From Candidatus Nomurabacteria bacterium GW2011_GWE2_34_25 (GTDB taxonomy: Bacteria > Patescibacteriota > Minisyncoccia > Phycocordibacterales > UBA9973): 54,608 nucleotides of DNA. The stretch lies in contig LBPS01000009.1 in the NCBI GenBank assembly GCA_000990325.1, positions 1 to 54,608 of the forward strand, read 5' to 3'. The translations under genes were made by a program, and so were the position numbers. Positions within the stretch are counted from its first letter, which is position 1. Each line of letters opens with the position of its first letter. The notes below the pieces were generated by a model. The model saw nothing but the letters and a program-made list of their open reading frames with translations, searched no databases and was not told the DNA's origin. Shown piece by piece: positions 10,888-54,441 of this stretch.

Positions 10888-10894
10888 GTATATT

Positions 10895-12880: not shown

Positions 12881-12908
12881 ATTTTTATATTAGTTTTTAA
12901 TGTTTTTA

Positions 12909-19012: not shown

Positions 19013-19019
19013 ATATAAT

Positions 19020-19463
19020 TTATTTTGATTTTTCCAAGACCTCTTTTTCTTCCGCTGAAAGTTCAAATTCGGATTTACCTCCAACTATAGGTTTTGCAAA
19101 AATACTCATACGATCACGAGCATAAAGACTAGACATCACTACTCCGTTTCCTTCATCATTTATAAATGAGATTGCGAAACTTTGATTGCTCCCAGCTTCT
19201 AAAAATGGATTGAATCGTACTGTTTCTACTTTTCGAATAGATTTATCTAATCGTCTATCTATTATTACTAAGTGCTCGTCGATCTTTTTTTGAGATTCAT
19301 CTAGCTCTTTCATTTGTTTACCCAAAAGAAGCATGACTTCTTCAAGATTGCGGGCCTTGGTTCCAGCAAAAAACTTTTTGAATCTGTATTCTGTCAGGTT
19401 TACCCATAATAACAATATAACTAAGATACCTGATAGAATATAAATAAGAATAGACATAGTCAT
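19020..19463 (-). CDS. DUF4446-like membrane-anchored protein
   Basis: N-terminal TM, VRFNPF..GSNQSFAI..GNGVVMSSLYARD..FAKP..LSAEE. Confidence 0.8.
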   Translation of the reverse strand: MTMSILIYILSGILVILLLWVNLTEYRFKKFFAGTKARNLEEVMLLLGKQMKELDESQKKIDEHLVIIDRRLDKSIRKVETVRFNPFLEAGSNQSFAISFINDEGNGVVMSSLYARDRMSIFAKPIVGGKSEFELSAEEKEVLEKSK

Positions 19464-19550
19464 AACTTAAAAGAGTATATACTAATAAGGCCTTTTTTAC
19501 AACTCTTTTTCGTGTAAGGTCAAATTTAGACTCTATGATATAATTAATAT

Positions 19551-21477: not shown

Positions 21478-24171
21478 ATGCCCCCATTTAATCATTTTAC
21501 AACTAAAGCTAAAGAAGTTATCAGGAAAGCTCACGAGCTAGCTATTGAGCGTGGACAGAATCATGTAAATACACTTCATCTTCTTATCTCACTTCTGATA
21601 CAAGAAGAGTCTCTCATAATTTCCATTTTAGAAAAAATGGAAATAGATACTACTCTATTGGTAGATAATTTAAGCGATATGATAGAATCCCCTGAGAATA
21701 GGAACACTCTTTCTCCTTCTTATCAGCTCTATCTCACTCCTGATTTGGCTCAAGTCATAGAATCTTCTAGTAAAATAGCTACAGATATGAAAGATGATTT
21801 TGTTTCGACTGAACATTTATTTTTCTCTTTACTTGAGACTCCAGGTGAAGCTAGAGAACTTCTTGGTAAATTTAAAATAAATAAAGACCAAGTCTTAGAA
21901 GTTTTAAATCAGCTTAGAAAAGAAAAAGGTAATGAAGTAAATACTCCCAAGCAACCTAAGCTTATCAATAAATTTACAAGGAATCTTACTTTACTTGCTC
22001 GTCAAGACAAGCTTGACCCAGTCATAGGGCGTGATAGAGAGATTATGCGTATGATGCAAATCCTATCTAGGCGCACGAAGAATAATCCTATACTTATAGG
22101 AGAGGCAGGTACTGGCAAGACAGCTGTTGCAGAAGCTTTGGCACAAAGAATTGCAAAGAATGATGTTCCTGAGAGTTTGAAAGATAAAGAAGTAGTGTCT
22201 CTGGACTTAGGCTTACTTTTAGCAGGGACGAAGTACAGAGGAGAGTTTGAAGAGAGACTCCGTGGAATCCTTAAAGAGATAGAGAAAGCCGAAGGTAAAA
22301 TAATTCTTTTTATAGATGAGATCCATACTATTGTTGGAGCAGGGAGCTCTGAAGGATCTCTCGACGCTTCGAACATGCTAAAGCCGGCACTAGCTCGAGG
22401 AGAACTTCGTGCAATAGGAGCGACAACTTTAAAAGAATATCAAAAGCATATAGAAAAGGATCCTGCCTTAGCACGTCGTTTCCAGCCTATCTTTATAGAT
22501 GAACCAAGTGTAGACGATACTATCGCTATTCTTCGTGGGCTCAAAGAAAAATATGAACTTTTCCACGGTGTTCGAATTACTGATGATGCTATTGTTTCTG
22601 CTGTAACTCTTTCAACCCGTTACATTACTAACAGATATCTTCCAGATAAAGCCGTAGATCTTATCGACGAAGCTTCTTCTGCTCTTCGTATTGCCCTTGA
22701 GAACAAGCCACCTATACTCGAAGATGCACATCGTAAAATTATGCGTTTTGAAATAGAAAAGGAGGCATTACTAAATGAGATCGGCAGAGACTCAGGCAAA
22801 ACTGAATCAAGTAAAAAGGCAGAAGCACGTGTGAAAGATATAGACAAAGAGATAGGCAACTTGAAAGAGAAGACTCACGAGCTTGAACTTAAATGGAAGA
22901 ATGAGAAAGAAACTGTCGTAAGTATTCGTAGTATTAAAAAGGAATTAGAAACTTTACGTCTCGAAGGTGAGAACTCAGAAATGCACGCTGACCTTGCTCG
23001 TGTCGCTGAAATACGTTATGGAGAGATTCCAGATTTAAAGAAAAAGTTAGATACAAAGCTTCTAAGACTTAAGAAATTACAAAAGTCACGAAGAATTTTG
23101 AAAGAAGAAATCACGGCTGAAGATATTGCAGAAGTTGTCTCTATGTGGACAAGCATTCCTCTTTCAAAAATGCTTGAAGAAGAAAGAGAAAAATTAGCAA
23201 ACATAGAAGATGTTCTCCGGGCTCGCGTAATAGGGCAGGATGAAGCTATAAAAAAGATTGCGAATGTTGTTCGTAGGAATAGAGCGGGTATTTCAGATCC
23301 AAACAAGCCTATTGGTTCATTTATATTCTTGGGTCCTACAGGTGTAGGGAAAACTGAGCTTACAAAAGCATTGTCAGAATTTATGTTCAACGATGACAAT
23401 GCTCTTATCAGAGTAGATATGAGTGAGTATATGGAGCGTCATAGTGTCTCAAAGCTTATAGGTTCACCACCAGGCTATGTTGGTTACGATGAGTCAGGAA
23501 ACTTAACCGAAGCTGTACGTCATCGACCTTATTCTGTAATTCTTTTTGATGAGATTGAGAAGGCTCACCCTGAAGTTTTCAATGTACTCCTTCAAGTATT
23601 AGACGAAGGACGCCTGACAGATGCAAAGGGTAGAATTGTGAATTTTAAGAATACGATTATAATTTTGACCTCAAACATCGGCTCTCAATTTATCGAGAAG
23701 ATGGAGACTTTAGGTTTTACCAATAAATCAAAAGTAGATGAGTATACCCAGACCAAAGAAAAAGTCTTAGAATCTTTGAAAGATTATTTCCGCCCCGAAT
23801 TCTTAAACAGACTCGATGATACAATTGTCTTCGATATTCTTTCCCTTGATGCTATAAGGCATATTGTAGACTTGAAGATAAAAGTGGTAGTGGATAGACT
23901 AAAGGCTAAAGAAATTGGTTTTGAAATTTCAAACGATGCTTTGACTTACTTGGCAAAAGAAGGCTATAACCCTCACTATGGCGCAAGACCATTAGGGCGA
24001 CTTATACAAGACAAAATACTTAATCCTGTTGCGACGTTTATAATAGGCAGAGGAGTGAAGAAGGGAGACATTGTAAATGTAACAATGAGAGATAAAGAAA
24101 TTATAGTAGAAATGAAAAAAGGTAAAATTGTATCAAATGTGAGAGTTCGAGGAAGAATGGGAGTAAAATAA
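21478..24171 (+). CDS. clpB: ATP-dependent chaperone ClpB
   Basis: Two AAA+ modules ([16 protein letters not shown]), long middle coiled coil, YGARP. Confidence 0.93.
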
Positions 24172-24198
24172 TAATATTATTAATAAAAATATAAAAAT

Positions 24199-24729
24199 AT
24201 GAATAAATGGAGTATAGATACAATGCATTCAATAATAGGTTTTAAAGTAAAACATCTAATGATCTCAAATATTAGAGGCCAGTTTAATAAGTTTGATGGA
24301 AGTGTAGAAATGGAGGACAGTGACTTTATTAAAGCTTCAATAAAATTCAAAGCCGAAACCAATAGCATAAGTACCAACAATACAGATAGAGATGGGCATC
24401 TTATGTCTCCTGACTTTTTTGACGTTACTAAATTCCCTGTAATATCTTTTGTCTCAAAAGAAATTACAGAAAAAGGTGATAACAATTTTGTAGTAACTGG
24501 AGATTTAGAGATACATGGAGTAGTTAAAGAGGTTAATCTAGATGTGAAGCTAAATGGAATTGGAGAAAATATGAATCATCAAAGTATTATGAGTTTTGAT
24601 GCCCTAGGAACTATTAATCGTAAAGATTTTGGTTTGAATTGGAGTGCTACTTTAGATAAAGGTGAAATAGTTGTTTCTGATAATGTTGATTTAGATATAA
24701 GTGTAGAGTTAGTTAAGAGTAATTCTTAA
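24199..24729 (+). CDS. YceI family protein
   Basis: WSIDTMHS.IGFKVKHLMIS..RDGHL.SPDFFD..INRKDFGL. Confidence 0.92.
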   Translation: MNKWSIDTMHSIIGFKVKHLMISNIRGQFNKFDGSVEMEDSDFIKASIKFKAETNSISTNNTDRDGHLMSPDFFDVTKFPVISFVSKEITEKGDNNFVVTGDLEIHGVVKEVNLDVKLNGIGENMNHQSIMSFDALGTINRKDFGLNWSATLDKGEIVVSDNVDLDISVELVKSNS

Positions 24730-33293: not shown

Positions 33294-34556
33294 ATGTTAG
33301 ACATTAAATTCATACGTGAGAACAAAGATATAATTAAAGAGGGTGCAAAGAAGAAGCATATCGAAGTAGATATAGATAAGCTTGTCTCTGTAGATGAAAA
33401 ACGACTTGAGATTCTTTCTCGTGTTGAATTCCTGCGTGGAGAGCAGAATAAAATGAATAATTCTATCGCTACAGAAAAGGATATGGCTATTCGCGGGCAA
33501 ATGATAGGAGAAATGAAAATGGTAAAGGAAGAATTAGTTGGAAAAGAAGAAGAATTAAGAACTATTATGACAGAATGGCAATCTTTAATGCTTACGGTTC
33601 CAAATATTCCAGACATATCTGTACCAGAAGGAGAAAGTGATGCTGACAATCAAGAAGTAAAAAGTTGGGGAGAGAAACCAGTCTTTGATTTTGAAGCCAA
33701 GGATCACATAGAACTTATGACCAATCTTAAAATGGTTGATTTTGATCGAGGAGTCAAAGTGCATGGTTTTCGAGGATATTTCTTAATAGGAGATGGAGCC
33801 AGACTTTCGATGGCTATATGGAGTTATGCACTAGACTTTTTTTCTAGTAAAGGACTTTTACCTGTAATACCCCCTGTAATAGATCATAAAGAAAATTTCA
33901 TTGGTACTGCCATGATTCCACAAAGTGAAGAAGATCTATATAAAACTCAAGATGGAAATTATCTCGCTGGAACAGCTGAGGTGCCGATTATGGGAATGCA
34001 TGCAAATGAGATTTTGGATCAAAAAGTCTTACCACTGAAATATTTAGGATTCTCTCCATGTTTTAGGCTTGAGGCAGGAAGTCACGGCAAAGATGTCAAG
34101 GGTCTAATACGCGTACAAGAATTTTATAAAATGGAACAAGTAGTACTATGTGAAGCGAATCATGAGGTGTCAGTAAGGGTACACGAAGATATTACAAGAA
34201 ACTCTGAAGAATTTCTTGAATCACTAGGTATTCCTTATCATACTGTAATAAATTGTGGGGGAGATTTGGGGTTAGGGCAGGTTAAAAAGTATGATATCGA
34301 AGCATGGGTACCTAAGGAAAGCAAATATAGAGAAACTCATTCGGCTTCTTATTTTCATGATTTTCAAACTCGTCGTTTAAATATTCGCTATAAAGACGAA
34401 GATGGAAAAATGAAATATGTTCACTCGTTAAACAATACAGCTGTTGCGACTCCCCGCATTCTTGTTTCACTGGTAGAAAATTTTCAACAGGCAGATGGCA
34501 CGATAAAAGTTCCGACTGTTTTGCAAAAATATTTAGGTAAAGATATTATTTCTTAA
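33294..34556 (+). CDS. serS: Serine--tRNA ligase
   Basis: MLDIKFIREN, LAGTAEVP, FRLEAGSHG, HSLNNTAVATPR. Confidence 0.97.
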   Translation: MLDIKFIRENKDIIKEGAKKKHIEVDIDKLVSVDEKRLEILSRVEFLRGEQNKMNNSIATEKDMAIRGQMIGEMKMVKEELVGKEEELRTIMTEWQSLMLTVPNIPDISVPEGESDADNQEVKSWGEKPVFDFEAKDHIELMTNLKMVDFDRGVKVHGFRGYFLIGDGARLSMAIWSYALDFFSSKGLLPVIPPVIDHKENFIGTAMIPQSEEDLYKTQDGNYLAGTAEVPIMGMHANEILDQKVLPLKYLGFSPCFRLEAGSHGKDVKGLIRVQEFYKMEQVVLCEANHEVSVRVHEDITRNSEEFLESLGIPYHTVINCGGDLGLGQVKKYDIEAWVPKESKYRETHSASYFHDFQTRRLNIRYKDEDGKMKYVHSLNNTAVATPRILVSLVENFQQADGTIKVPTVLQKYLGKDIIS

Positions 34557-34563
34557 ATAACCA

Positions 34564-35430
34564 ATGAAAGACATACCGGTATCACCACGCATAGCTCTCC
34601 TTAAACGCAATCGGAAAGTTATGAGATTGCGTTTGTTTATATTGCTTACTGTCTTGTTTGCTGTCTTTGTAGGGGCTATCTCTTATTTTTCTTCTCACCC
34701 TAAAATTGTAATCAATAAAATTATTATTACAGGTAATAGTATTATTGATACCGAGAAATTGGAGTCTAGTATAAATATAAAATTAGCTGGCAAATATTTA
34801 GGTCTTTTTTCACGTTCAAATTTTTTAATATATCCACACGATAAAATATATAATAATTTGATTTTAGAATTTCCTCGGATAGAAAGTTTATCTATCAAAC
34901 AAGAAGGGTTCAATACTCTTCGTCTAACGATAAAGGAACGTCTGGGCTCGTATTTGTATTGTGGGTTAAAAGTTCCAGAGGAAAAACAAGACATTGGAGA
35001 GAATTGTTATTTTGTAAATAATGATGGGTATATTTTTGATAAAGCCCCATATTTTTCCGGGGACGTTTATTTTAAATTCTATACAAACATAAAAGGGAAT
35101 TATCCCAATCCACTAGGTTCTCAGATGCTCGACTCTGTACGTTTTCACGAATTGGCTCGCTTTATTGACGGAGTAGCAACGCTAGGGTTTAAGGGAGCGT
35201 ATCTTGTAGTAGAAGACAATGGTACACATATTCTTTACTTAGAAAAAGCCGGAAATATTTCTAATCCAAAAATAATTTTTAAAAAAGAAAATGATATTGG
35301 AATTATATATGATAATCTTGCTACGGCCATGAAAGAAAGAGAATTTGCAAATGAAATAAATTCAAAGTATGATACTCTTTTATATATAGACCTTAGGTTT
35401 AATAATAAAGTGCTGTATAAGTTTAATTAA
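34564..35430 (+). CDS. FtsQ/DivIB-like membrane protein
   Basis: Basic N-terminus, single TM, POTRA-like IIITGN, IKER, C-terminal YIDLRF. Confidence 0.7.
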   Translation: MKDIPVSPRIALLKRNRKVMRLRLFILLTVLFAVFVGAISYFSSHPKIVINKIIITGNSIIDTEKLESSINIKLAGKYLGLFSRSNFLIYPHDKIYNNLILEFPRIESLSIKQEGFNTLRLTIKERLGSYLYCGLKVPEEKQDIGENCYFVNNDGYIFDKAPYFSGDVYFKFYTNIKGNYPNPLGSQMLDSVRFHELARFIDGVATLGFKGAYLVVEDNGTHILYLEKAGNISNPKIIFKKENDIGIIYDNLATAMKEREFANEINSKYDTLLYIDLRFNNKVLYKFN

Positions 35431-35461
35431 TTTTTGTGACTTCATTTAAAAAATAATATTT

Positions 35462-36481
35462 ATGAAAAAATTCTGGGATAAATTACCAAAACCGTTTTTT
35501 TGTTTAGCGCCTATGGCAGATGTCACCGATGCGGCTTTTCGTCGCATGTTTGCCAAGTATGGCAAGCCTGATGTGACTTGGACCGAGTTTGTCTCAGCCG
35601 ATGGTCTTGTAAGTGAGGGGAGAAAAGTTCTTAAATATGATTTACTCTATAGTGAAAAAGAAAGACCAATAGTTGCACAACTTTTCTCTTCTAACCCTAC
35701 AAAAATGCATGAGGCAGCAAAACTTTGTGCAGACTTAGGATTTGATGGTATTGATATAAATATGGGTTGTCCCGATAGATCGATAGAGAAGCAAGGGGCA
35801 GGTGCTGCGATGATGAAAGATATGAAGAAGGCAGGAGAAATTATAAAGGCTGTGAAAGATGGTATAAAAGATTCTAAAAAGAAGAACGCTCAAAGTATGT
35901 CTGTTTCTGTAAAAACTCGCATTGGATATAACAAGAACCAGATAAGTGAATGGATTCCATTTTTACTTTCACAAGATATAGATGCACTTACTTTACACGC
36001 TCGTACTAGGAAAGAAATGTCTTTAGTTCCAGCAAGATGGGATCATGTAAAAGAAGTTGTGGGCATAAGAAATAAGATGGGAGTGAAGACCAAAATAATA
36101 GGGAATGGAGATGTCAAAAGTTTAGAAGATGGTATAAGGTTAGCTGAAGAGACTGGTTGTGACGGTATAATGGTAGGCAGGGCTGTATTTGGTAATCCAT
36201 GGTTTTTTGGCGGGGAGAGGCCTTGCCTCAAGGGAGCCCGAGGCAAGGCCTCAAGGAGCCAAGAAATTTCAATAAAAGAAAAATTGAAAGTCCTAGTCGA
36301 ACACACCAAGCTTTATGATAAACTTCTGGGTAAAGTGAAAAATTTTGCAGTCATGAAGAAGCATTACAAAGCTTATGTGAATGGCTTCGATGGAGCCAAG
36401 GAACTTCGTGTAAAACTCATGGATGCTAGTTCTGCTAAAGAAGTTGAAACTATAATTAAAGAATTTCTAAAAACTCTTTAA
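35462..36481 (+). CDS. dus: tRNA-dihydrouridine synthase
   Basis: LAPMADVTD, IDINMGCP, SVKTRIG, HARTR, GNGDV, MVGR..GNPW. Confidence 0.95.
   Translation: MKKFWDKLPKPFFCLAPMADVTDAAFRRMFAKYGKPDVTWTEFVSADGLVSEGRKVLKYDLLYSEKERPIVAQLFSSNPTKMHEAAKLCADLGFDGIDINMGCPDRSIEKQGAGAAMMKDMKKAGEIIKAVKDGIKDSKKKNAQSMSVSVKTRIGYNKNQISEWIPFLLSQDIDALTLHARTRKEMSLVPARWDHVKEVVGIRNKMGVKTKIIGNGDVKSLEDGIRLAEETGCDGIMVGRAVFGNPWFFGGERPCLKGARGKASRSQEISIKEKLKVLVEHTKLYDKLLGKVKNFAVMKKHYKAYVNGFDGAKELRVKLMDASSAKEVETIIKEFLKTL
36217..36252. repeat. Palindromic element inside the dus CDS (same family as 20107-20142, inverted)
   Basis: GAGGCCTTGCCTC-10 nt-GAGGCAAGGCCTC. Confidence 0.85.
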
Positions 36482-36505
36482 TTTGGTATACTATAGTTTA
36501 TGAAA

Positions 36506-36534
36506 CCCCAAAGGAAAGAGTACTTCCTACGGGG
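36506..36534. repeat. Short imperfect palindrome CCCCAAAGG...CCTACGGGG upstream of dnaX
   Basis: Shares CCCCAAAGG and CCTACG with 52551-52568. Confidence 0.55.
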
Positions 36535-36559
36535 CATGGATTCTAAATAATTTTTACTT

Positions 36560-37618
36560 ATGAATAAAAACACAAACAACAACAATAATATAGCACTTTA
36601 TAGGAAATACCGACCTGAAAACTGGGATGAAGTTATAGGGCAGGATCATATAGTGAAGGCTATAGGAGGAGCGCTTAAGGCTGGTAAGGTTTCCCATGCC
36701 TATCTTCTTTGCGGTCCACGTGGTACAGGTAAGACCACAATTGCGCGTATTATAGCCAGCGAGTTAGGTACAACCCGAAACGATATATATGAGCTTGATG
36801 CAGCTTCGAATCGTGGAATTGATGATGTTCGTAGTATTCGCGATAGCGTTCAGACCATGCCTTTTGATTCTAAATACAAAATTTATATTCTCGATGAAGT
36901 TCATATGTTTACTAAAGATGCTTGGAATGCACTTCTTAAAACTATCGAAGAACCTCCAAGTCATGTTATTTTCATACTTGCTACTACTGAACTTGAGAAG
37001 GTTCCTGAGACTATCGTTTCTCGTTGCCAGAGTTTTATATTTAAAAAGCCTACAGACCATATTTTAACATCAGCTGTTATAAATGTTGCCAAGAAAGAAG
37101 GCTATACTCTCGAAGAAGGTGGAGCAGGGCTGATAGCACTTCTTGCAGATGGAGCTTTCCGTGATGCTTATGGAACCTTACAGAAAGTTATATCTTTCTC
37201 TAGAAGTAATCAGATAAGCCTTTCTGACATAGAAGAAGTTACAGGGTCTCCCAATGCAGTACTCGTAGATGAATTCTTAAATGCGATAGCTCATAAAGAT
37301 ATTGAGAGAGGTTTTATAACAATAAAGAAAGCCAATGATCAAAATATTGAGATGCAAGTATATTTGAAGATGATTTTATCTAAGCTTCGATATGCTCTCA
37401 TGCTTCGTTATGCTCCTAATACAAGAGTAGAGATAGAGAAAGTTTTTTCTGAACACGACATGGTTTACATCACAGAGCTTATAGCAAGTAAACCAGAATA
37501 TATATCTTCAGCTACTTTATCTATTTTACTTGAATCATATCAATCACTCAAAAATGCTGTTATTAGTGAACTTCCCTTAGAACTAGCTCTAGTCAAGATT
37601 TTAAATGAAGGAAAATAA
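36560..37618 (+). CDS. dnaX: DNA polymerase III subunit gamma/tau (short)
   Basis: ALYRKYRP, GPRGTGKTT, ELDAASNRG, ILDEVHM, TIVSRCQ. Confidence 0.96.
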   Translation: MNKNTNNNNNIALYRKYRPENWDEVIGQDHIVKAIGGALKAGKVSHAYLLCGPRGTGKTTIARIIASELGTTRNDIYELDAASNRGIDDVRSIRDSVQTMPFDSKYKIYILDEVHMFTKDAWNALLKTIEEPPSHVIFILATTELEKVPETIVSRCQSFIFKKPTDHILTSAVINVAKKEGYTLEEGGAGLIALLADGAFRDAYGTLQKVISFSRSNQISLSDIEEVTGSPNAVLVDEFLNAIAHKDIERGFITIKKANDQNIEMQVYLKMILSKLRYALMLRYAPNTRVEIEKVFSEHDMVYITELIASKPEYISSATLSILLESYQSLKNAVISELPLELALVKILNEGK

Positions 37619-38855
37619 AAACAAAATTTGGGATGTCATAATTATTGGCGGCGGTGCCTCGGGAATGATGGCTGGCTCCATAGCAGGATCTCGCTCTAAG
37701 TCCGTACTTATACTTGATAAGAATAAAAGTTTAGGAGAAAAATTAAAAATTACAGGTGGAGGACGTTGCAATATTACAAATGCCGAGCCTGATATTCACA
37801 AGATGCTGAAAGTCTATGGCAACGGGGCTCCTTTTTTATATACACCATTTTCTATTTTTGGAGTGAAAGATACCTTTCAGTACTTTGAATCAAGGGGTCT
37901 TCCTCTAGTAACTCAAGCTCGCAATAGGGTCTTTCCTGTCACAGAGAAAGCATTGGATGTTTTTAATCTTTTGCAAAAAGATTTAGAGAAAAATCACGTA
38001 ACAGTAAAAAGTAATTGTGCAGTCAAAAGCATAAGGGTCAATAATGGATTAGTTGAATGTGTGGAAACTAGTAGTGGTATGTATTATGCCAAGTCTTTTG
38101 TTTTAGCGACTGGCGGTCTTTCACATCCGGAGACTGGTTCTACGGGGGACGGTTTTAGCTGGCTTAAAGATTTGGGTCATGAGGTGAAAACTCCAAGTCC
38201 AGATATTGTACCTTTGGCGGTCAGTGATGCATGGGTTAAAACTTTAGCGGGAGTATCTCTTTCTTTTATGAAGATTACTTTTTTTCTTGAAGGAAAAAAG
38301 CAATTTTCTAAAACAGGCAAAATTCTCTTTACTCATTTTGGTCTCTCTGGACCGCTTATTTTGAATAGCTCTCGTAAAGTTTCGGATTTACTTCAGTCTG
38401 GTTTAGTGAGAGCTTATATAGATGTTTTCCCTGATACAAATGAAGGCTCGCTAGAAGATTTTATAATTAAAACTTTTGATGCCAATAAGAATAAAATTCT
38501 GAGAACTGTATTTAAAGATATTGCTCCAGAGGGTACCGCTAAAGCCATAGAGATGATTTGTTCTGAACTTGATTTCAATATGAAAATTCATAGTATAACC
38601 AAAGAAGACAGAAAAAAGATCGTTAGATTATTGAAGGCTTTACCCATGACTATTACAAACTTGATGGGCTACGAGAGGTCTGTAGTAGCGGATGGAGGAG
38701 TATCACTCACAGAGATAGACATGAAAACAATGTCTTCAAAAATAATTCCTAATTTATATGTTACTGGAGACTTACTTAATATTAATAGGAATTCTGGAGG
38801 GTATAGTCTTCAGATTTGTTGGACGACTGGATATATAGCAGGAAATTCTGTTTAA
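37605..38855 (+). CDS. HI0933/BaiN-family flavoprotein
   Basis: IIGGGASG, KLKITGGGRCNITN, ATGGLS, LFTHFGLSGP, GGYSLQ. Confidence 0.92.
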   Translation: MKENKNKIWDVIIIGGGASGMMAGSIAGSRSKSVLILDKNKSLGEKLKITGGGRCNITNAEPDIHKMLKVYGNGAPFLYTPFSIFGVKDTFQYFESRGLPLVTQARNRVFPVTEKALDVFNLLQKDLEKNHVTVKSNCAVKSIRVNNGLVECVETSSGMYYAKSFVLATGGLSHPETGSTGDGFSWLKDLGHEVKTPSPDIVPLAVSDAWVKTLAGVSLSFMKITFFLEGKKQFSKTGKILFTHFGLSGPLILNSSRKVSDLLQSGLVRAYIDVFPDTNEGSLEDFIIKTFDANKNKILRTVFKDIAPEGTAKAIEMICSELDFNMKIHSITKEDRKKIVRLLKALPMTITNLMGYERSVVADGGVSLTEIDMKTMSSKIIPNLYVTGDLLNINRNSGGYSLQICWTTGYIAGNSV

Positions 38856-40946: not shown

Positions 40947-41897
40947 ATGACGAAGAAAAGAGTATTAACAGAAACCAATTTCAAATTTCCTGACCAGACC
41001 CATGTTTATCGTGGAAAGGTAAGAGATGTTTACTTTTTTAATGATGAAACTATGGCAATGGTTGTAACCGACCGTATCTCAGCTTTCGATGTAGTGTTGC
41101 CCAAGGGGATTCCATACAAAGGACAAATACTTAATCAGATAGCTTCCAGATTTTTGGAAGCAACTGAAGACATAGTTCTTAACTGGAAGATCTCCACCCC
41201 TGATCCAAATGTTACATATGGTCACCGTTGCGAGCCGTTCAAAGTTGAAATGGTAATCCGTGGTTATCTCACAGGTCATGCTTGGCGTGAGTACAAAGCT
41301 GGGAAAAGAATGCTCTGCGGAGTTGTTCTACCTGAAGGAATGGTTGAAAATCAGAAATTTCCTGAGCCAATTATTACACCAACCACCAAGGCCTTAGTTG
41401 GTCACGATGAAGACATTTCAAGAGCAGAGATTATTTCTAAGGGACTTGTTTCTGAAAAAGATTACATTCTCTTGGAGAAATACACCCGTGAACTTTTCCA
41501 GCGTGGAACTGAAATGGCTGCCGAAAAAGGTTTAATTTTAGTTGATACCAAATATGAATTTGGGAAGAAAGATGGCCAAATCTATTTGATTGACGAAGTT
41601 CACACACCCGATTCATCACGGTATTTTTATACTGAAGGCTACGAAGAACGTCTTGCTAAAGGTGAAAGCCAAAAGCAACTTTCGAAAGAATTTGTTCGTC
41701 AGTGGCTCCTCGAAAACGGCTTCCAGGGCGAAGCAGGACAAGTTGCTCCCAAGATGACAAAGGATTTGATTGATTCATTTTCTGCCCGTTACATTGAATT
41801 ATACGAAGCTGTCATGGGTGAACCTTTTTCGAAAGGTAGCACGAAGAACATTTCACAGCGGGTTAAGAATAACCTGGATTATTTTTTGGTTAATTGA
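40947..41897 (+). CDS. purC: SAICAR synthetase (long type)
   Basis: [41 protein letters not shown]. Confidence 0.95.
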
Positions 41898-41919
41898 AGA
41901 AAATCAAAATTAGAATTAC

Positions 41920-41949
41920 AAAGAAGGCTGAAAATTTTCAGCCTTCTTT
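41920..41949 (+). terminator. Terminator after purC
   Basis: AAAGAAGGCTGAAA/TTTCAGCCTTCTTT followed by a T-run. Confidence 0.8.
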
Positions 41950-41969
41950 TTTTTGTTTCAAAAACCCTA

Positions 41970-42140
41970 GCTGGGAGATATGGACCGGCAGTAGCCTTAT
42001 CGAACCTTACAGGTTCAGTACACCTTTTCCGTTCGTAAACTCACACGGAAAAGGTTTTCGATTCCCTAACGCGAGTAAAGAAGTTTACTCGCTTCTCCCA
42101 GCAAAAGAAAACCATACTTTAAAAGTGGGTTTTCTAATTT
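41970..42140. repeat. tRNA-Gln 3'-associated element with direct and inverted interrupted copies of the tRNA 3' end
   Basis: GCTGGGAGATA..ATCGAACC (41970-42006); TTCGATTCCCTA..TCTCCCAGCAAA (42057-42105). Confidence 0.8.
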
Positions 42141-42141
42141 G

Positions 42142-42212
42142 CTGGGAGATAGGGAATCGAACCCCAATTAAAGGCTTCAAAGGCCTCTGTCCTACCGTTA
42201 GACGATCTCCCA
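42142..42212 (-). tRNA. tRNA-Gln (TTG), CCA not encoded
   Basis: Reverse complement TGGGAGA..GAGGC-CTTTGAA-GCCTT..GTTCGAT..TCTCCCA-G. Confidence 0.95.
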
Positions 42213-42284
42213 ATATAAAACAATATTAAGAATACCCTAAAAACAGTTATTTTTCAACTATGTAAATTGTGATAGAATTAATCT

Positions 42285-42536
42285 ATGTATTTCACTTATA
42301 TACTCCTATGTGCGGACAAGACTCTATATGTGGGTTCTACGAACGATTTAGAGAAGAGATTACACAAACACAATCACTTGAAATCAGGAGCGCATTATAC
42401 AAAAATTCGCAGACCTGTTGAGTTAAAATATTTTGAAAGATTCAGGATGTATGGTAAGTCACGAGCTAGGGAGGGAGAACTTAAAAAACTCACTCGAAAT
42501 CAAAAACTAGAATTAATTAAAAATTTCACAATATAA
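42285..42536 (+). CDS. Small GIY-YIG nuclease (UPF0213/YhbQ-like)
   Basis: YFTYILLCADKTLYVGSTNDLEKRL..H..GAHYT..RRPV..RE..LK. Confidence 0.9.
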   Translation: MYFTYILLCADKTLYVGSTNDLEKRLHKHNHLKSGAHYTKIRRPVELKYFERFRMYGKSRAREGELKKLTRNQKLELIKNFTI

Positions 42537-42606
42537 TTAGTAAATATCAAGTATCTGTAGTATACTTCTAGAGTCGTTTAGTATGAATTAATTTTATAGA
42601 ATATAT

Positions 42607-42714
42607 ATGGATGAAGAAGAAACAAAGGTAAAGGTAGAAGGAGAAGAAGTTGTTGTTCCTGAAGAAGAAACTGTAGAAGTTCCTGCAACAGAAGAGGCTA
42701 CTCCTGTTGAATAA
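42607..42714 (+). CDS. Small acidic protein, 35 aa (not in ORF track)
   Basis: MDEEETKVKVEGEEVVVPEEETVEVPATEEATPVE*, followed by a hairpin terminator at ~42724-42767. Confidence 0.6.
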   Translation: MDEEETKVKVEGEEVVVPEEETVEVPATEEATPVE

Positions 42715-42852
42715 TAATATTCACAAACAAAAAACTCATTAATTTATATTAATGAGTTTTTTGTTTGGGTTGCTATTTAGTCTTAAAAGTGCTATAATTA
42801 CAGAATAATAGTAACAACTTGTCTAGTTAAGCTAGGTAAATATAAATAATTT

Positions 42853-43422
42853 ATGGGAAATTTTAATGATAGAGGTGGTAATAGAGGTGGCGGTGGAGGA
42901 GGTTTTAGAGGCGGAAATGGAGGCGGAGGACGTCCAAGTTTCGGTGGTGGTCGTCGAGATGATCGAGGTCCTGTGACAATGCACAAGGCTGTTTGCGATG
43001 AATGTCACAAGAGTTGTGAGGTTCCTTTCCGTCCATCACAAGATAAGCCAATATATTGTAATGATTGTTTTAGTAGCAAGAGAGATGATGGTGATCGTGC
43101 TCCACGCCGTGAATTCAGTAATGATCGTGGACCAAAGAGAGACTTCAACGATAGACCAGCTCCAACATTTGCAAAGCCAGCAGTAGCAGGGAATGACATG
43201 AGTAAACAATTGAGTGAAATGAATAGTAAGCTTGATCGTCTTATAAATGCAATAGAAAAGATGTCAGGTCCAAAAGTAGTAGCTCCTGTTGTTACTTCAA
43301 GGCCTGCCCTAAAAGTTGCTCCAGTAGTAGCTAAGAAAATTGAAGTTAAAAAAGTTGTAGCTAAAGCTCCAGTTAAAAAGGTTGCTGCTAAAAAAGTAGT
43401 AGGAAAGAAAAAGACTAAATAA
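42853..43422 (+). CDS. CxxC-x17-CxxC domain protein with RGG-rich N-terminus and Lys/Ala-rich tail
   Basis: AVCDECHKSCEVPFRPSQDKPIYCNDCF. Confidence 0.85.
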   Translation: MGNFNDRGGNRGGGGGGFRGGNGGGGRPSFGGGRRDDRGPVTMHKAVCDECHKSCEVPFRPSQDKPIYCNDCFSSKRDDGDRAPRREFSNDRGPKRDFNDRPAPTFAKPAVAGNDMSKQLSEMNSKLDRLINAIEKMSGPKVVAPVVTSRPALKVAPVVAKKIEVKKVVAKAPVKKVAAKKVVGKKKTK

Positions 43423-43986: not shown

Positions 43987-45207
43987 ATGAATAAAATTAA
44001 ACTCTGGTATCTATATGATTTTGCTAACTCTTTTGCCTCGGTCGTTTTGCTTTTCTATTATCCACTTATACTTTCCGAAAGAGGAGCAAGTGATATTTGG
44101 ATAGGTGTTTCGGCTTCTATTTCTACTGCCGTTCTATTGATTATATTGCCTTATCTGGGTTCATTGTCTGACAAGATAGGAAAAAGAGTTTTGTTTATAA
44201 AGATTGGTTCTATGTTAATGGTTATATCCCTTATTTTGATATCTTTTATTATAAAAGGTAGTGATGTTTTTGATTTAAAAATTTTATTCATATTATCATT
44301 TTTGTATATTTTATTTCAAATTTGTTGGCAGGGTTCATATTCTATCTATACAGCTATGTTAAGGCAGATTAGTGACGAAACAAGTAGAGTTAAAATATCT
44401 GGTCAAGGATATGGTTTTGGTCAATTAGGTAACGCTCTAGCTATTGTAATAATAAGTGCAATAATAGGTACCTCTGTAGTATTTTTAGGTTTAAGTGGTA
44501 AAGTTTTAGCATTGTTTTTAGGTGCGTTATTCTTTTTACTGTTAACTAGTCTTTTCTTTTTTCAAAAAGAGTCTACTAAAAATGATTCAGTTAATCATTT
44601 TTCTTATAAGGAATTTTTCAAAAAGATAAAAAATAATAAAAGAGTGTTTTATTTCTTAATAGGTTATTCTTTGCTTGCTGATGCCTTACTTACTTTTCAA
44701 TTATACATAGCATTGTATGTGAGTAAGGTATTTGATTTTTCAGATAAAGGCGTTTCCTATGTTGCAGTCATAGGGCTTGTTTTTGCTATGATTGGGGGAT
44801 TTATAACTAGTATATTTGTAAAAAAATTAAAAAATAAAAACAGAGCTTTGATAGTAGCAGGGTTATCTTATGGAGTTAGTTTTGGCTTGTGTGCTTTAAT
44901 GCCAGTGGTATCTTCAGCTGTATTTATTGTGGTGGCCCTAAGTGGTCTTTTCTTTGGAATTCTATTTTCTTTATTCAGAGTAATTTATTCAGAAATATCA
45001 CCTATGGATTCTCAAGGCGAATTCTTCAGTATATTTACCGTATTTGAAAAAGCTGCTTCAGTTGTTGGTCCACTTGTTTGGTTGTTAACATTTTATTTAT
45101 TGAGAAGTTTTGGAGAAAGTATCCAGTATAGAGGCTCCGTTTTATTACTAATGATAATTTGTTTTATTGGAATTTATTATTTAAAGAAAAGTGAAAAGTT
45201 CTCTTAA
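43987..45207 (+). CDS. MFS transporter (ATG22/BtlA-like)
   Basis: WYLYDFANS, LGSLSDKIGKR, GEFFSIF..GP. Confidence 0.85.
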   Translation: MNKIKLWYLYDFANSFASVVLLFYYPLILSERGASDIWIGVSASISTAVLLIILPYLGSLSDKIGKRVLFIKIGSMLMVISLILISFIIKGSDVFDLKILFILSFLYILFQICWQGSYSIYTAMLRQISDETSRVKISGQGYGFGQLGNALAIVIISAIIGTSVVFLGLSGKVLALFLGALFFLLLTSLFFFQKESTKNDSVNHFSYKEFFKKIKNNKRVFYFLIGYSLLADALLTFQLYIALYVSKVFDFSDKGVSYVAVIGLVFAMIGGFITSIFVKKLKNKNRALIVAGLSYGVSFGLCALMPVVSSAVFIVVALSGLFFGILFSLFRVIYSEISPMDSQGEFFSIFTVFEKAASVVGPLVWLLTFYLLRSFGESIQYRGSVLLLMIICFIGIYYLKKSEKFS

Positions 45208-45233
45208 TTTTAGAATAATATATTATTATCTAT

Positions 45234-45644
45234 ATGGGTGAATTATTTAAAATATTTTTTGGTATTAAAAAAAGAAAAATATACAGAAAAGTAAAAACTA
45301 AGAGAAAAAATTTAAATTATTTGAAATACAAAGTACAAGCAGGCATTCTAGTGAAAGAAAGATTGGAATATTTTAACCAATTTTATAATTATAAGTGGGG
45401 AAGGGTTACAATCAGGAATCAAAAGACGCGGTGGGGGAGCTGTTCAAAACATGGGAATTTGAATTTCAATTACAAGATAGTATTACTTACTCCAAAACAA
45501 GCAGACTATATAATAGTCCACGAATTGTGTCATCTAAAAGAATTTAATCACTCACAAAGGTTTTGGGATTTGGTGGCAGTGACTGTGCCAGATTATAAAG
45601 AAGTTCGACACAGCTTACGAAAAAACGGTCTTCGACTTGGGTAA
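45234..45644 (+). CDS. YgjP/DUF45-like metalloprotein
   Basis: QKTRWGSCS, DYIIVHELCHL.E.NHS.RFW. Confidence 0.88.
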   Translation: MGELFKIFFGIKKRKIYRKVKTKRKNLNYLKYKVQAGILVKERLEYFNQFYNYKWGRVTIRNQKTRWGSCSKHGNLNFNYKIVLLTPKQADYIIVHELCHLKEFNHSQRFWDLVAVTVPDYKEVRHSLRKNGLRLG

Positions 45645-45653
45645 TTTTTAATC

Positions 45654-45680
45654 CCAGAAAGGGGTTTAACCCCTTTCTGG
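45654..45680. repeat. Perfect palindromic hairpin (REP-like or terminator)
   Basis: CCAGAAAGGGGT-TTA-ACCCCTTTCTGG. Confidence 0.6.
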
Positions 45681-45731
45681 AGGCATAGAACCTTTCTATT
45701 TAAGTAAAAATAAGGTAGAGTATGAATCTAT

Positions 45732-47204
45732 ATGGCTCACGGAGAAGTAGTAATACGTTTTGAAAAGGTTTCTTTTGAATACGGGCACAATAAACCGATA
45801 CTGGATGCGGTTGACTTTTCTGTGCGTCGGGGCATGAAAGTGACAATCATGGGTCAGAATGGCGCAGGTAAGAGTACCCTGTTCTCCCTTATAACAGGAG
45901 AAAGACAACCAGAAGATGGCCAAGTTCATTTAGCTCAGAGGACGACTATTGCACTTTCTCGCCAAGTTATTCCTCGTGATGAGCTTGATCTATCTGTACG
46001 TGAATTTTTCTTGAAATGTTTTACAAATAAAGTTTACGATATCGACCCTCGCATTGATGATGTACTTGAAATAGTAAATTTGAAAGGCCACGAGAAAGTT
46101 CATGAGAGAACTATCCGTTCTTTTTCGGGTGGTCAGCAAGCAAGACTTTTACTTGCCTCTGCTTTAATACAAGAACCAGATGTTTTACTTTTAGATGAGC
46201 CGACAAACAATCTTGATAAGGCGGGCATAGAGCATCTAACTGATTTCTTAGTTAAATACAAGAAGACGGTTATTGTTATTTCTCACGATGCTCACTTTCT
46301 GAATTCATTTACTGACGCGGTGCTTTACTTAGATGTATATACAAAGAAGATAGAACAATACGTAGGTAACTATACAGACGTAAGAGACCAAATCACAGCT
46401 CGGATGGAACGTGAGAATAGGAAGAACGCACTTCTTTCAAAAGAAATTCAAGCCAAGAAAGATCAGGCCAATGCCTTCGCTATGAAAGGGGGTAATCTCC
46501 GTGCTGTTGCTAAGCGTATGCGAGACCTCGCAGAGGAGCTTGAAGAAGAGAAGGTGGATGTAAGAAAAGAAGATAAGACTATCAGGAATTTCATAATTCC
46601 AACTCAAGATGATTATGTCGGGGATATTGTAACTTTTAGTTCAGTTCCAATATACAAGAATCACAAAATAAAAAATATAAAAGTAAATGTAAAACTTCGC
46701 AAGAACAAGCATTTACTCCTTTCTGGTCCAAATGGTATTGGCAAGAGTACATTGCTTGAGTCTATAGTGAAAGGGAAAGTGGAAGGAATTTTCATTTCTC
46801 CCCTAGTTAGGGTTGGTTATTATCGGCAAGATTTCTCAACTCTAAATTTTAGTGATACTGTCTATGAATCCTTAGCAGAAACAATGAGAGAGGTAAGTGG
46901 TAAGGTTCACGAAGAAAGTATTCGTGCGACAGCTGCCAGCTTCCTTATTACTGGTGATATGGTTTATACACAAATCGGAAGTTTGTCTGAAGGACAGAAA
47001 GGCTTAGTGGCTTTTGCCAAACTTGTACTGACTCGTCCAGGGCTTCTGATACTCGATGAACCGACTAACCATATCAACTTCCGTCACCTACCTGTGATAG
47101 CTAAAGCCCTCAGTGATTACAAGGGAGCCATGATCCTAGTCTCTCACGTGCCAGACTTTGTAGAGAAGATACGTATTGATGAAATCCTTGATTTAGATAA
47201 ATAA
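45732..47204 (+). CDS. ABC-F family ATPase
   Basis: Two ABC domains (GQNGAGKS, GPNGIGKS; LLLDEPTNN, LILDEPTNH), no TM segments. Confidence 0.92.
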   Translation: MAHGEVVIRFEKVSFEYGHNKPILDAVDFSVRRGMKVTIMGQNGAGKSTLFSLITGERQPEDGQVHLAQRTTIALSRQVIPRDELDLSVREFFLKCFTNKVYDIDPRIDDVLEIVNLKGHEKVHERTIRSFSGGQQARLLLASALIQEPDVLLLDEPTNNLDKAGIEHLTDFLVKYKKTVIVISHDAHFLNSFTDAVLYLDVYTKKIEQYVGNYTDVRDQITARMERENRKNALLSKEIQAKKDQANAFAMKGGNLRAVAKRMRDLAEELEEEKVDVRKEDKTIRNFIIPTQDDYVGDIVTFSSVPIYKNHKIKNIKVNVKLRKNKHLLLSGPNGIGKSTLLESIVKGKVEGIFISPLVRVGYYRQDFSTLNFSDTVYESLAETMREVSGKVHEESIRATAASFLITGDMVYTQIGSLSEGQKGLVAFAKLVLTRPGLLILDEPTNHINFRHLPVIAKALSDYKGAMILVSHVPDFVEKIRIDEILDLDK

Positions 47205-52610: not shown

Positions 52611-53579
52611 ATGTTCATAGACGAAATAAAATTTTTTGGAAAAGCTGGAACCGGTGGAGACGGGGTTGTTCGTTGGCGTCGGGAGAAATTCATAGATAAA
52701 GGTGGGCCCAATGGCGGAGACGGAGGTAGAGGTGGCAGTGTATTTGCTGTCGCTGTACAAGACGTTCATATCCTTTCTCGTTACAAACATAAAAAAGAAT
52801 GGAGGGGTAACGATGGAGAGCCTGGAGCAGGCGGAAGTCGTCACGGTAAAGATGGAGCTGATATAACTATAGAGCTTCCCGTAGGTTCTATTATTACAAA
52901 CGTTGAAAGTGGCGCATCTGTATCACTAGAAGAAGTAGGACAAAAGGAACTCTTACTCAAGGGTGGTCTTGGTGGTTTTGGCAATGAACAGTTCAAGACT
53001 TCTACAAATACCGCTCCGACGACTGCCACAAAAGGCAAGATAGGAGAAGAAGGTAACTTCAAGATCGAGCTTGAACTTTTCGCTGAAGTAGGACTTATAG
53101 GTCTACCCAATGCAGGGAAGTCCTCACTCTTAAATGATATAACCAACGCCGATGCGAAGATAGGTAGCTATCAGTTCACCACCCTTGATCCAAACTTAGG
53201 AGACTTTTATGGGCATATCATTGCCGACATTCCTGGACTTATAGAAGGAGCATCGACTGGGAAGGGTCTTGGTATTAAATTCTTAAAACACATAAAGAGA
53301 ACTCGCATGCTTGCACACTTAGTATCTTTAGAAAACGAGAATCCAATGAAAGTTTATAAGCAGATAAGAAAAGAATTAGGAGCTTATGACAAATCTTTAC
53401 TTCTAAAGAAAGAAATAATAATCTTGACTAAGACAGACGTAATGACTGATACAAAGAAGCTAGATAAAATAAAAGCTGAGTTTGAGAAACTCGGTAATCC
53501 AGTCATGACCTTGTCTTTATATGAAGACCAATCTCTAAAGAAACTAATAGACGGACTTGTAAAATTGTTGAGAAAATAA
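52611..53579 (+). CDS. obgE: GTPase ObgE/CgtA
   Basis: MFIDE, GGPNGGDGGRGG, GLPNAGKS, YQFTTL, DIPGLIEGA. Confidence 0.96.
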   Translation: MFIDEIKFFGKAGTGGDGVVRWRREKFIDKGGPNGGDGGRGGSVFAVAVQDVHILSRYKHKKEWRGNDGEPGAGGSRHGKDGADITIELPVGSIITNVESGASVSLEEVGQKELLLKGGLGGFGNEQFKTSTNTAPTTATKGKIGEEGNFKIELELFAEVGLIGLPNAGKSSLLNDITNADAKIGSYQFTTLDPNLGDFYGHIIADIPGLIEGASTGKGLGIKFLKHIKRTRMLAHLVSLENENPMKVYKQIRKELGAYDKSLLLKKEIIILTKTDVMTDTKKLDKIKAEFEKLGNPVMTLSLYEDQSLKKLIDGLVKLLRK

Positions 53580-53619
53580 TATAGTATAAGAGTTTTTGAT
53601 TACATAAAAAGTCTAACAT

Positions 53620-53692
53620 GCCCTGTTAGCTCAGCTGGTAGAGCAGCTCCCTCTTAAGGAGATGGTCGGGGGTTCGATTCCCTCACGGGGCA
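53620..53692 (+). tRNA. tRNA-Lys (CTT), CCA not encoded
   Basis: GCCCTGT/ACGGGGC acceptor, CTCC-CTCTTAA-GGAG, GTTCGAT. Confidence 0.93.
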
Positions 53693-53858
53693 CAAATTTT
53701 TGCGAAGCACAAAATTTGTGATTTTTAAACATATCCAAATATATGTTTAAAAAAATCGAAAGACGGAGGCTGGCGAGCCGAGTCGGGGTCGCGAGCTTTT
53801 TCAGCAGAAAAAGACTTGTGACCGAACATGTACTCACGATTCCCTCACGGGGCACAAA
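53675..53858 (+). repeat. tRNA-Lys 3'-end 22-bp direct repeat flanking a structured ~140-bp element
   Basis: CGATTCCCTCACGGGGCACAAA at 53675-53696 and 53837-53858. Confidence 0.9.
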
Positions 53859-53874
53859 GTAGTATAATATAAAT

Positions 53875-54441
53875 ATGGAGAGACTTGGAAAAGATAAAAA
53901 TCTAAACACTAAAGAGGTCCAGTTGGACTTGCCTTTTGAAGATGTTTCTAAAAATGAAAACACTCAACATGTTGAAGGAGAATTTCAGCGGGAATATTTA
54001 GATGATCATAATAAAGAAAACGACGAAGAAGAAATTACCTATCTTTCACCCGATGAATTAATTGAATTAGAAACTTCTGATCCGGTTGCTTTTAAAGCTT
54101 TAATGGAAAAAATTAAAGAAAGAGAAGAACAAGAAAAAATAGATGAAATAGAAAGAGCTGTTTATGCAGAAGAAGCTGAAAAAGATAAACAAGAAAAAAT
54201 GAAAGAACTTCAAGAATCAATAAATAGAATAATTAAGGAAAATGAAGTAACTGACGTTATTGATGAAAGAGATGATAAAACTGGAGGATATAGACATACC
54301 ACAGAAATTGCACTACATAAAAAAGAAGAAGAAATAAAAAAGAAAAAAGAGCTGAAAATAAATAAAAACAAAACAAAACCCAAGAGTAAAAAGAGATGGT
54401 GGAATAGGGGGAGGAGATTCATTAAGGGATATTTTTGGTAG
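53875..54441 (+). CDS. Hypothetical highly charged protein (acidic body, basic tail)
   Basis: 188-aa ORF with TATAAT shortly before the ATG. Confidence 0.65.
   Translation: MERLGKDKNLNTKEVQLDLPFEDVSKNENTQHVEGEFQREYLDDHNKENDEEEITYLSPDELIELETSDPVAFKALMEKIKEREEQEKIDEIERAVYAEEAEKDKQEKMKELQESINRIIKENEVTDVIDERDDKTGGYRHTTEIALHKKEEEIKKKKELKINKNKTKPKSKKRWWNRGRRFIKGYFW

Follow-up and report, generated by a model that had tools for sequence, protein, structure and literature searches.

tRNA gene ends and comparable systems

The ends of tRNA genes are classic landing sites of genomic islands, and Williams is said to have defined, in 2002, a T-loop sublocation class of att-type repeats in tRNA and tmRNA genes. 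To our knowledge, the way in which such landing sites are shaped is poorly known. The present analysis deals with a stretch of 54,608 nt (the window, to which coordinates refer unless another contig is named), contig 9 of the Candidatus Nomurabacteria bacterium GW2011_GWE2_34_25 assembly (G000; 767 kb, 19 contigs, 35% G+C), and with a unit of ~170 bp located 3' of its tRNA-Gln(UUG) gene. In this unit the tRNA end recurs in inverted and in direct orientation, and both copies are split by hairpins. The locus is one copy of a family of gene-less, hairpin-rich cassettes of ~130-170 bp in the 3' flank of Paceibacteria tRNA and tmRNA genes. This hairpin-insert family behind the tRNAs of ultra-small bacteria is widespread and apparently undescribed; a search of the open-access full-text literature found no description. 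It occupies a third of the tRNA genes in a 767-kb genome, mirrors the adjoining gene end both ways, and turns over between relatives. A maturation switch for the tRNA is a less likely reading of the unit than DNA that is mobile or prone to recombination.

Several described systems resemble the unit in part. The tRNA-linked repeats (TLRs) of Escherichia coli are found 3' of tRNA or rRNA genes, beyond a first terminator, and their last 18-19 bp are identical to the 3' end of the gene; three of them (RrA/B/F) are read-through small RNAs, and TLR function is mostly unknown (PMC8144298). As in the TLRs (rtT, RrA/B/F), a direct copy is present here (15 nt with 14/15 matches, plus an 8-nt T-loop piece). 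Inverted copies and splitting hairpins, both features of the unit, are not described in the TLR source (PMC8144298). The organisms are different, the likeness is one of arrangement, and for the unit the pair statistics presented below argue against an RNA constraint. The att-type repeats of tRNA genes share with the unit the same block from T-loop to 3' end, inserted DNA between the copies, tandem accretion, presence/absence polymorphism, and the hot spot used by real islands of G000. Direct repeats of the tRNA 3' end flank DNA that is absent from related genomes, as in an integrative element, but no integrase goes with it, the recombinase genes of G000 being located elsewhere. Att-type islands further differ in that the unit has only ~170 bp without any open reading frame (ORF), that one conserved core serves many tRNAs, and that an inverted copy is found in addition.

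In CTXphi/IMEX, two opposite target-like sites ~90 nt apart fold into a hairpin mimicking the double-stranded target, and integration leaves a functional target copy and two element copies in the chromosome (PMC3089051). The order of direct copy, inverted copy, loop, and direct copy in this folded attP (and in the integron attC) matches that of the unit, which likewise can form a target-mimicking hairpin. The target of CTXphi/IMEX is dif and the enzyme XerCD, whereas here the stems copy tRNA ends and not a dif-like site, and the "genome" would consist of ~35 nt of terminator. Direct-inverted-direct copies joined at short, interrupted inverted repeats also arise by origin-dependent inverted-repeat amplification (ODIRA), the palindromic junctions being unstable and subject to remodelling; this process is eukaryotic, origin-dependent, and of kb-to-Mb size (PMC10766186), and it offers no account of a conserved core across loci. 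REP/REPIN sequences with their RAYT proteins and the ends of IS200/IS605 elements are comparable as small non-coding hairpins with covarying Watson-Crick stems near terminators, and RAYT-like genes exist in G000. These genes are flanked by other hairpins, though, and REPs copy no neighbouring gene. Classical miniature inverted-repeat transposable elements have constant terminal inverted repeats and a short target duplication of fixed length, whereas the arms here differ from locus to locus and equal the tRNA end. None of these systems (TLRs, att repeats, folded single-stranded sites, inverted triplications, REP/RAYT) combines target copies in both orientations, splitting hairpins, and a core common to several tRNAs.

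Architecture of the tRNA-Gln(UUG) locus

The tRNA-Gln(UUG) gene (42142-42212, minus strand; detected by ARAGORN, 61.9 bits with Rfam RF00005) has a U1:A72 pair and the discriminator G73; CCA is not encoded, the next bases being CAAA. An earlier note, made from the letters alone, had stated that the 3' end of this tRNA is present three times (real, inverted, and direct) with both extra copies interrupted, and every part was recovered at the position it gave. The inverted copy (42057-42105) is split by a 25-nt hairpin insert. Its first half on the tRNA strand, seg1 (42094-42105, TCTCCCAGCAAA on the plus strand), corresponds to the acceptor 3' strand, the discriminator, and four trailer bases and is complementary to 42138-42149 at 12/12 positions. 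The other half, seg2 (42057-42068, TTCGATTCCCTA on the plus strand), corresponds to the T-loop and the T-stem 3' strand and is complementary to 42150-42161, again at 12/12 positions. The insert hp1 (42069-42093) sits at the junction of acceptor and T-stem and has a 9-bp stem (GCGAGTAAA/TTTACTCGC); its family-wide form is A-GC, stem, loop CTGC/CTTC/TGGGA, and GC-G. The direct copy (41970-42006) is split by 14 nt into a T-loop piece (41999-42006, ATCGAACC on the plus strand, GGTTCGAT on the tRNA strand, 8/8) and a part with the T-stem 3' strand, the acceptor 3' strand, the discriminator, and one further base (41970-41984, GCTGGGAGATATGGA on the plus strand, 14/15). Between the two copies lies a variable, long hairpin of 11 bp, hp2 (42022-42055, ACCTTTTCCGT/ACGGAAAAGGT), which the note had also recorded.

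The note had missed two further hairpins, the hairpin nature of the 14-nt insert, and the fact that the inverted copy complements the 3' strand. The 14-nt insert, hp4 (41985-41998), lies in the T-loop of the direct copy and has the stem GGC/GCC and the loop AGTA on the plus strand, i.e. TACT on the tRNA strand. The hairpin hp3 (42002-42016, GAACC TTACA GGTTC on the plus strand) forms, together with a conserved junction (GGTGTACTG on the tRNA strand), the best-conserved portion of the family (42002-42021), as delineated by folds, relatives, and pair counts. The trailer hairpin t (AGAAAACC/GGTTTTCT, 14-nt loop, followed by UUUUCUUUU on the tRNA strand; 42106-42135) was found by repeat search and folding. 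It is located between tRNA-Gln and the inverted copy, is roughly palindromic with the trailer, and resembles a terminator with its U-run; a terminator scan restricted to loops of 3-8 nt did not flag this 14-nt-loop hairpin. Read on the tRNA strand, the order thus is block A (T54 to the discriminator), the A-rich trailer with t and the U-run, seg1, hp1, seg2, hp2, the conserved junction, hp3 (GAACC UGUAA GGUUC), (U)UCGAU-AAG, hp4 (GGC UACU GCC), and finally the T-stem 3' strand, the acceptor 3' strand, and the discriminator once more. Seg1 and seg2 can also pair with the direct copy, with GCTGGGAGA/TCTCCCAGC as the closing stem, and the region folds far beyond shuffled sequences on the two strands (z = -6.9 and -5.3).

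The inverted copy is the reverse complement of the 3' strand of tRNA-Gln (TAGGG) and not a copy of the 5' strand (TGGGG, which gives a G.U pair). A decayed tandem duplicate of the tRNA is ruled out by this difference and by the fact that the inverted copy also complements the discriminator and the trailer. An analogy to the primer-binding site of retroelements is ruled out as well, as the complement spans the genomic trailer CAAA and not CCA. TGG appears in the inverted copy only where CCA is encoded (L066). Within the unit (~170 bp) no credible ORF and no integrase are encoded. Rfam covariance models applied with permissive thresholds to 41000-43000 and 53500-54000 returned scores for tRNAs only, and everything else stayed far below the gathering scores. 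A 111-aa ORF (41894-42229, plus strand) that was mechanically listed across the whole unit and the tRNA antisense is almost certainly spurious.

A family of units behind tRNA and tmRNA genes

A script run over all 40 tRNA and tmRNA genes of G000 detected units with gene-specific arms behind 13 of them, so the pattern is not unique to this locus, which the note had named as a refutation. The genes are those for tmRNA, Gln-CUG, Gln-UUG, Leu-UAA, Ile-GAU, Arg-GCG, Gly-CCC, Gly-UCC, Glu-UUC, Pro-UGG, Thr-UGU, Trp, and Lys-CUU, and two further units lie behind serine-recombinase islands. The genome-wide comparison proposed in the note, i.e. whether flanking copies always match the adjacent tRNA, gave a positive result for 13/13 units in G000 and for 75/82 elsewhere among the matches listed. 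The arms are templated from the neighbouring gene. Exact inverted matches of at least 8 nt to the last 16 nt of the gene occur in 9/40 own pairs compared with 23/1560 mismatched tRNA/downstream pairs, some of the 23 stemming from neighbouring tRNA genes, and a chance origin of the tRNA-end copies is excluded. Even rare features are followed, such as the T-loop TTCAA of tmRNA and the T-loops TCCGA of Ile and Trp, and perfect direct copies of 15-19 nt are present at five other loci of the genome. A genome-wide 12-mer scan for stray copies of the arms yielded mostly chance matches, and only the adjacent copies and the repeat of the tRNA-Phe island were informative.

At least two classes of cores exist in G000, the units of Thr, Trp, and Lys-CUU having a different core ("class 2"). 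The second family member in the window belongs to this class: tRNA-Lys(CUU) (53620-53693, plus strand) is followed by a class 2 unit (53694-53855), which ends with a perfect 19-nt direct copy of the tRNA end (~53837-53855) and is devoid of the inverted acceptor copy. A hammerhead-like motif CTGACGAG in class 2 cores was considered and ruled out; the Lys(CUU) copy reads CTGGCGAG and not CUGANGA...GAAA, and no Rfam match was obtained. A second terminator stands behind some units (Gln-UUG, Ile-GAU), and behind many others a gene starts without an intervening terminator.

At the tmRNA gene of G000 (contig 2, 6832-7170, minus strand), two different units stand in series, with class 1 first. The second, with a class 2-like core beginning GGGAATCGGAAGAC, directly follows the decayed direct copy of the class 1 unit. 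The T-part of GGGAATCGGAAGAC fits the tmRNA T-arm of the closest relative (G021) better than that of G000. CCA is encoded by only 4/39 tRNA genes of G000 (Leu-UAG, Phe, His, and Thr-CGU); most of the genes end with the discriminator and C, followed by an A-rich trailer that is palindromic with the far side of the terminator.

Outside the source genome, the core (41982-42094) matches several places per genome within the same genus, and the hp3 region matches other families of the order with 91-97% identity over 30 nt. The wider distribution was determined with a degenerate hp3-hp4 motif, which detects one core subtype only, in a collection of species-representative genomes. At least 118 loci were found; among the matches listed, nearly all belong to Patescibacteria/Paceibacteria, with Nomura-, Yonath-, Kaiser-, and Taylorbacteria and the Parcubacteria group as hosts, and two (Butyrivibrio and Acutalibacteraceae) look like chance. 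A tRNA gene on the same strand is located just upstream of 82 of the 125 motif hits listed; the other 43 comprise second units of tandems, contig ends, tmRNA-linked copies missed by ARAGORN, and displaced units. Among the 82 units, a match of at least 8 nt to the own tRNA is present in inverted orientation in 50, in direct orientation in 58, and in either in 75, compared with 245 and 239 of 6114 controls in which units were paired with other isotypes. Allowing at most one mismatch, the inverted acceptor arm is retained in 55, the inverted T arm in 74, the direct T arm in 59, and the direct acceptor arm in 42 units. The direct acceptor part falls into two groups, 33 copies being perfect and 27 no better than random, a bimodal pattern expected if the junction is replaced and does not decay slowly. 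At 42/82 loci, an ungapped palindrome extends from the tRNA end to seg1.

Gain, loss, and exchange among relatives

The genomes compared are relatives and as such non-independent samples. Sixteen tRNA-Gln(UUG) loci from G000 and its relatives were readable: 11 harbor a unit, one a remnant (t plus GCTGGGAGA), and four are empty. The arms at these loci follow the changes of the tRNA (TGGGAGA, TAGGGGA, TTGGGAA, TTGGGGA), and the core subtype differs between loci. Cores are modular, common to different tRNAs of one genome, and swapped between orthologous loci. Thus, tRNA-Lys(CUU) is followed by a class 1 unit in G021 versus a class 2 unit in G000, and a comparison of Glu-UUC of G000 with another locus (L127) revealed that hp1 and the core may be exchanged next to a t hairpin that is orthologous.

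Between close relatives, units have been gained and lost, duplicated in tandem, or displaced. The closest relative, G021, shows up to 95% protein identity upstream of tRNA-Gln. Eight tRNAs have units in G021 and are empty in G000 (Ala, Glu-CUC, Cys, Leu-UAG, Leu-GAG, Ser-UGA, Ser-GGA, His), and seven have units in G000 and none in G021 (Ile-GAU, Leu-UAA, Arg-GCG, Pro, Trp, Glu-UUC, Gly-CCC). Downstream synteny is mostly lost and flanks are rearranged between the two genomes, which leaves the spacer between tRNA-Pro and tRNA-Gly as the only usable comparison of a filled with an empty site: it measures 22 nt in G021 versus 215 nt in G000, where it contains a unit with its own terminator. Tandem repeats of whole units are found at two loci (L007, L056). 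For the Gly-UCC unit common to G000 and G021, the tRNAs are identical (72/72), hairpin t has several changes, all of them compensated, and hp3 differs by a compensated C>T/G>A pair.

The right end of the Gly-UCC unit in G021 (contig 1, ~533657-533920, 3' of the tRNA) carries three hp3-type modules in a row, and after every module come GAC and a decayed T-stem 3' strand; this arrangement suggests repeated local duplication at the T-loop junction.

Base-pair statistics of the stems

The stems of the family covary strongly and are nearly purely Watson-Crick (WC). In hp3, 632 WC, 6 G.T, and 5 A.C pairs were counted, in hp4 384, 6, and 5, and in hp1 (58 family copies) 490, 4, and 2, which sums up to 1506 WC, 16 G.T, and 12 A.C pairs. 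The trailer palindrome t shows similar values (582 WC, 7 G.T, 8 A.C). The acceptor and T stems of the tRNAs from G000 and G021 contain 914 WC, 50 G.U, and 0 A.C pairs. Hence, G.T pairs make up ~1% of the unit stems, equal to A.C, compared with 5% G.U and no A.C in tRNA stems of the same genomes. Since equal and rare G.T and A.C pairs are indicative of a constraint on both strands or of DNA hairpins, and not of an RNA gene, the unit stems point to a DNA-level constraint.

Recombinases and islands in the source genome

Three large serine recombinase genes (L187-L189; open frames of 532, 548, and 579 aa) are encoded in G000, each abutting a tRNA 3' end: Lys-UUU (contig 6, ~9535-11140), Phe (contig 10, ~33939-38536), and Asn (contig 1, ~18229-19940). 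The 4.5-kb tRNA-Phe island terminates in a perfect 18-nt direct repeat of the tRNA end (CCA included), and just inside this closing repeat lies a complete unit with arms matching tRNA-Phe. An "orphan" unit lies at the start of contig 6; its arms fit tRNA-Lys(UUU), which is 10.7 kb off across the second island. In each of the two cases the island separates A from t at a tRNA with a unit, and this junction recurs at several orphan units of other genomes.

G000 also encodes three RAYT-like HUH (Y1) paralogues (216-239 aa) that score below the cut-off of the NCBIfam model for REP-associated tyrosine transposases (L141-L143; contig 1, ~12430-13800 and 45170-45950; contig 5, ~23600-24310). They are accompanied by perfect hairpins with a CTTG/CAAG-type loop, two genes being flanked on both sides in opposite orientations and one (L142) upstream only. 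Each hairpin type has a few more copies in G000, resembling a miniature REP/RAYT system. One Xer-like tyrosine recombinase was found as well. The single reverse transcriptase gene of the genome (contig 1, L139:1213-2568, minus strand, 451 aa, RVT_1 53.8 bits) is located beside a 376-aa ORF. No link of the Xer-like, reverse transcriptase, or RAYT-like genes to the units was detected in G000.

Origin of the unit

We consider the unit to be a target-templated, cargo-less DNA cassette that is made and exchanged at the recombination hot spot of tRNA ends, a reading to which we give about even credence. The direct copy would then be a displaced att-type repeat of the block from T-loop to gene end, and A and A' may fold in single-stranded DNA into a duplex that reproduces the end of the tRNA gene. 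The order that results (target copy, body, inverted copy, loop, and direct copy) corresponds to the footprint of CTXphi-like elements, which integrate as a folded single strand (PMC3089051). Selection would act on the tRNA only, with A' kept matched to it by re-templating or by conversion between the arms. The cassette is probably selfish or neutral for tRNA-Gln, and a transcribed by-product of it is possible. The suggestion in the note that the structure is the scar of a target-copying insertion fits the data in general. Its HUH variant is not borne out, as the three RAYT-like genes have different hairpins. A more far-reaching version, which we regard as rather doubtful, is a mobile miniature DNA element with both arms rewritten to mirror the target. 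Its inverted arm would act as a ~20-nt guide pairing with the tRNA 3' end, hp1, hp3, and hp4 would be handles for a host or island enzyme, and integration would proceed via a folded single strand mimicking the target duplex; such an element would in effect be programmable and protein-less and would also shape where serine-recombinase islands land.

A number of observations weigh against a DNA cassette. Whole-unit folds are stabler on the tRNA strand in 111/126 cases versus 14/126 for the other strand, and G.U pairs within helices are more frequent on the tRNA strand (224 versus 132). The stems covary, and the loops and junctions (GTAA, TACT, GGTGTACTG, GATAAG) stay conserved from family to family; such conserved loops with varying stems imply selection on something, and a functional RNA fits equally. 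As hairpin t is weak at tRNA-Gln, read-through transcription is possible. Retargeting to >20 different tRNAs, with arms of ~20 nt on both sides of hp1 and hp4, is without a demonstrated mechanism, and neither a recombinase or transposase nor a free or circular cassette was identified. As mobilisers of the units, the RAYT/HUH genes were rejected on account of their own hairpins (ATGCACTAGG.., CAGATAGTGG.., CCAGC..), which are unlike hp1-hp4, and a motif scan of 2.9 million viral contigs gave 0 matches.

The strand asymmetry and the conserved loops would suit a TLR-like read-through trailer RNA that forms a mimic of a tRNA minihelix. Its topology (gene, first terminator, then an end-identical copy) is that of the E. 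coli TLRs, the fold is strong, and a second terminator follows some units (Gln-UUG, Ile-GAU). We nevertheless hold such an RNA to be unlikely, given that G.T and A.C pairs are similarly rare in hp1, hp3, and hp4, that 27/82 units show no more than a random-level match in the direct acceptor copy, which the minihelix would require, that presence is patchy among close relatives with several unrelated core classes, and that many units run into a gene start without a terminator. Alternatively, no element at all would be involved, but an inverted triplication by replication template switching at short interrupted inverted repeats (terminator hairpin and T-arm), whose unstable palindromic junctions were later patched with cores from other loci via T-loop microhomology. 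Direct-inverted-direct copies with hairpins at both junctions are an ODIRA outcome, and secondary rearrangement of palindromic junctions is part of that process (PMC10766186); the ungapped palindromes at 42/82 loci and the replaced, yet palindromic hairpin t next to identical tRNAs in G000 and G021 agree with this. Still, the core is absent from the tRNA and from empty sites, leaving one junction without a pre-existing repeat, and a switch inside the T-arm would not account for an inverted copy in which the T-loop is reverse-complemented in full. Moreover, a second copy of t follows the direct copy in true tandems only, and the difference in conservation between loops and stems requires selection. 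Template switching alone thus appears quite unlikely.

The islands suggest a further function, in which A and A' around an extrudable hairpin would provide two inverted half-sites for the tRNA-end-crossing integrase and hence a landing pad for serine-recombinase islands. All three large serine recombinases of G000 are located at tRNA ends, two islands sit exactly between A and t, and several orphans elsewhere share this junction. Far more tRNAs bear units than there are recombinases, however, and no unit was detected at the third island (tRNA-Asn); we regard this putative role as very improbable. Most improbable of all is the maturation switch proposed in the note, i.e. an inverted copy that competes with the cloverleaf in a read-through precursor and thereby regulates tRNA-Gln. 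The structural part of that proposal stands: the minimum-energy fold of tRNA, trailer, and inverted copy (-71.9 kcal/mol) pairs the T-arm and the acceptor 3' strand with the inverted copy and destroys the cloverleaf, and the inverted copy is kept above chance (acceptor part in 55/82 units, T part in 74/82). The other observations argue against a maturation device. A hairpin with a U-run precedes the inverted copy, 27/40 genes of G000 have no unit, and relatives differ in their unit-bearing tRNAs, the comparison of orthologous tRNA-Gln(UUG) loci recommended in the note having returned 4/16 without a unit. The tmRNA has a unit too, the pair statistics are of the DNA type, and unfolding an essential single-copy tRNA would be costly.

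If mobile, the cassette must copy ~20 nt of its target into both arms, and we know of no described element that does so; if an RNA, it would constitute a family of tRNA-minihelix mimics in organisms with minimal genomes. Either way, the units account for many "tRNA fragment" signals in Patescibacteria assemblies, and the arms, hairpins, hot spot, and island integrases together represent a testable system for recombination at tRNA genes.

Flanking features of the locus

The unit is bounded by a palindromic terminator (41920-41949) of a convergent plus-strand gene (40947-41897). On the 5' side of tRNA-Gln, a consensus scan detected a promoter-like site, TTGAAA-17-TATTCT (42229-42257, minus strand), which is a match to the consensus and no proof of a promoter. 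Directly upstream of this promoter region, an 83-aa ORF of the GIY-YIG type (42285-42536, plus strand) matches the group I intron endonuclease model TIGR01453 weakly (E = 1e-4, below the cut-off).

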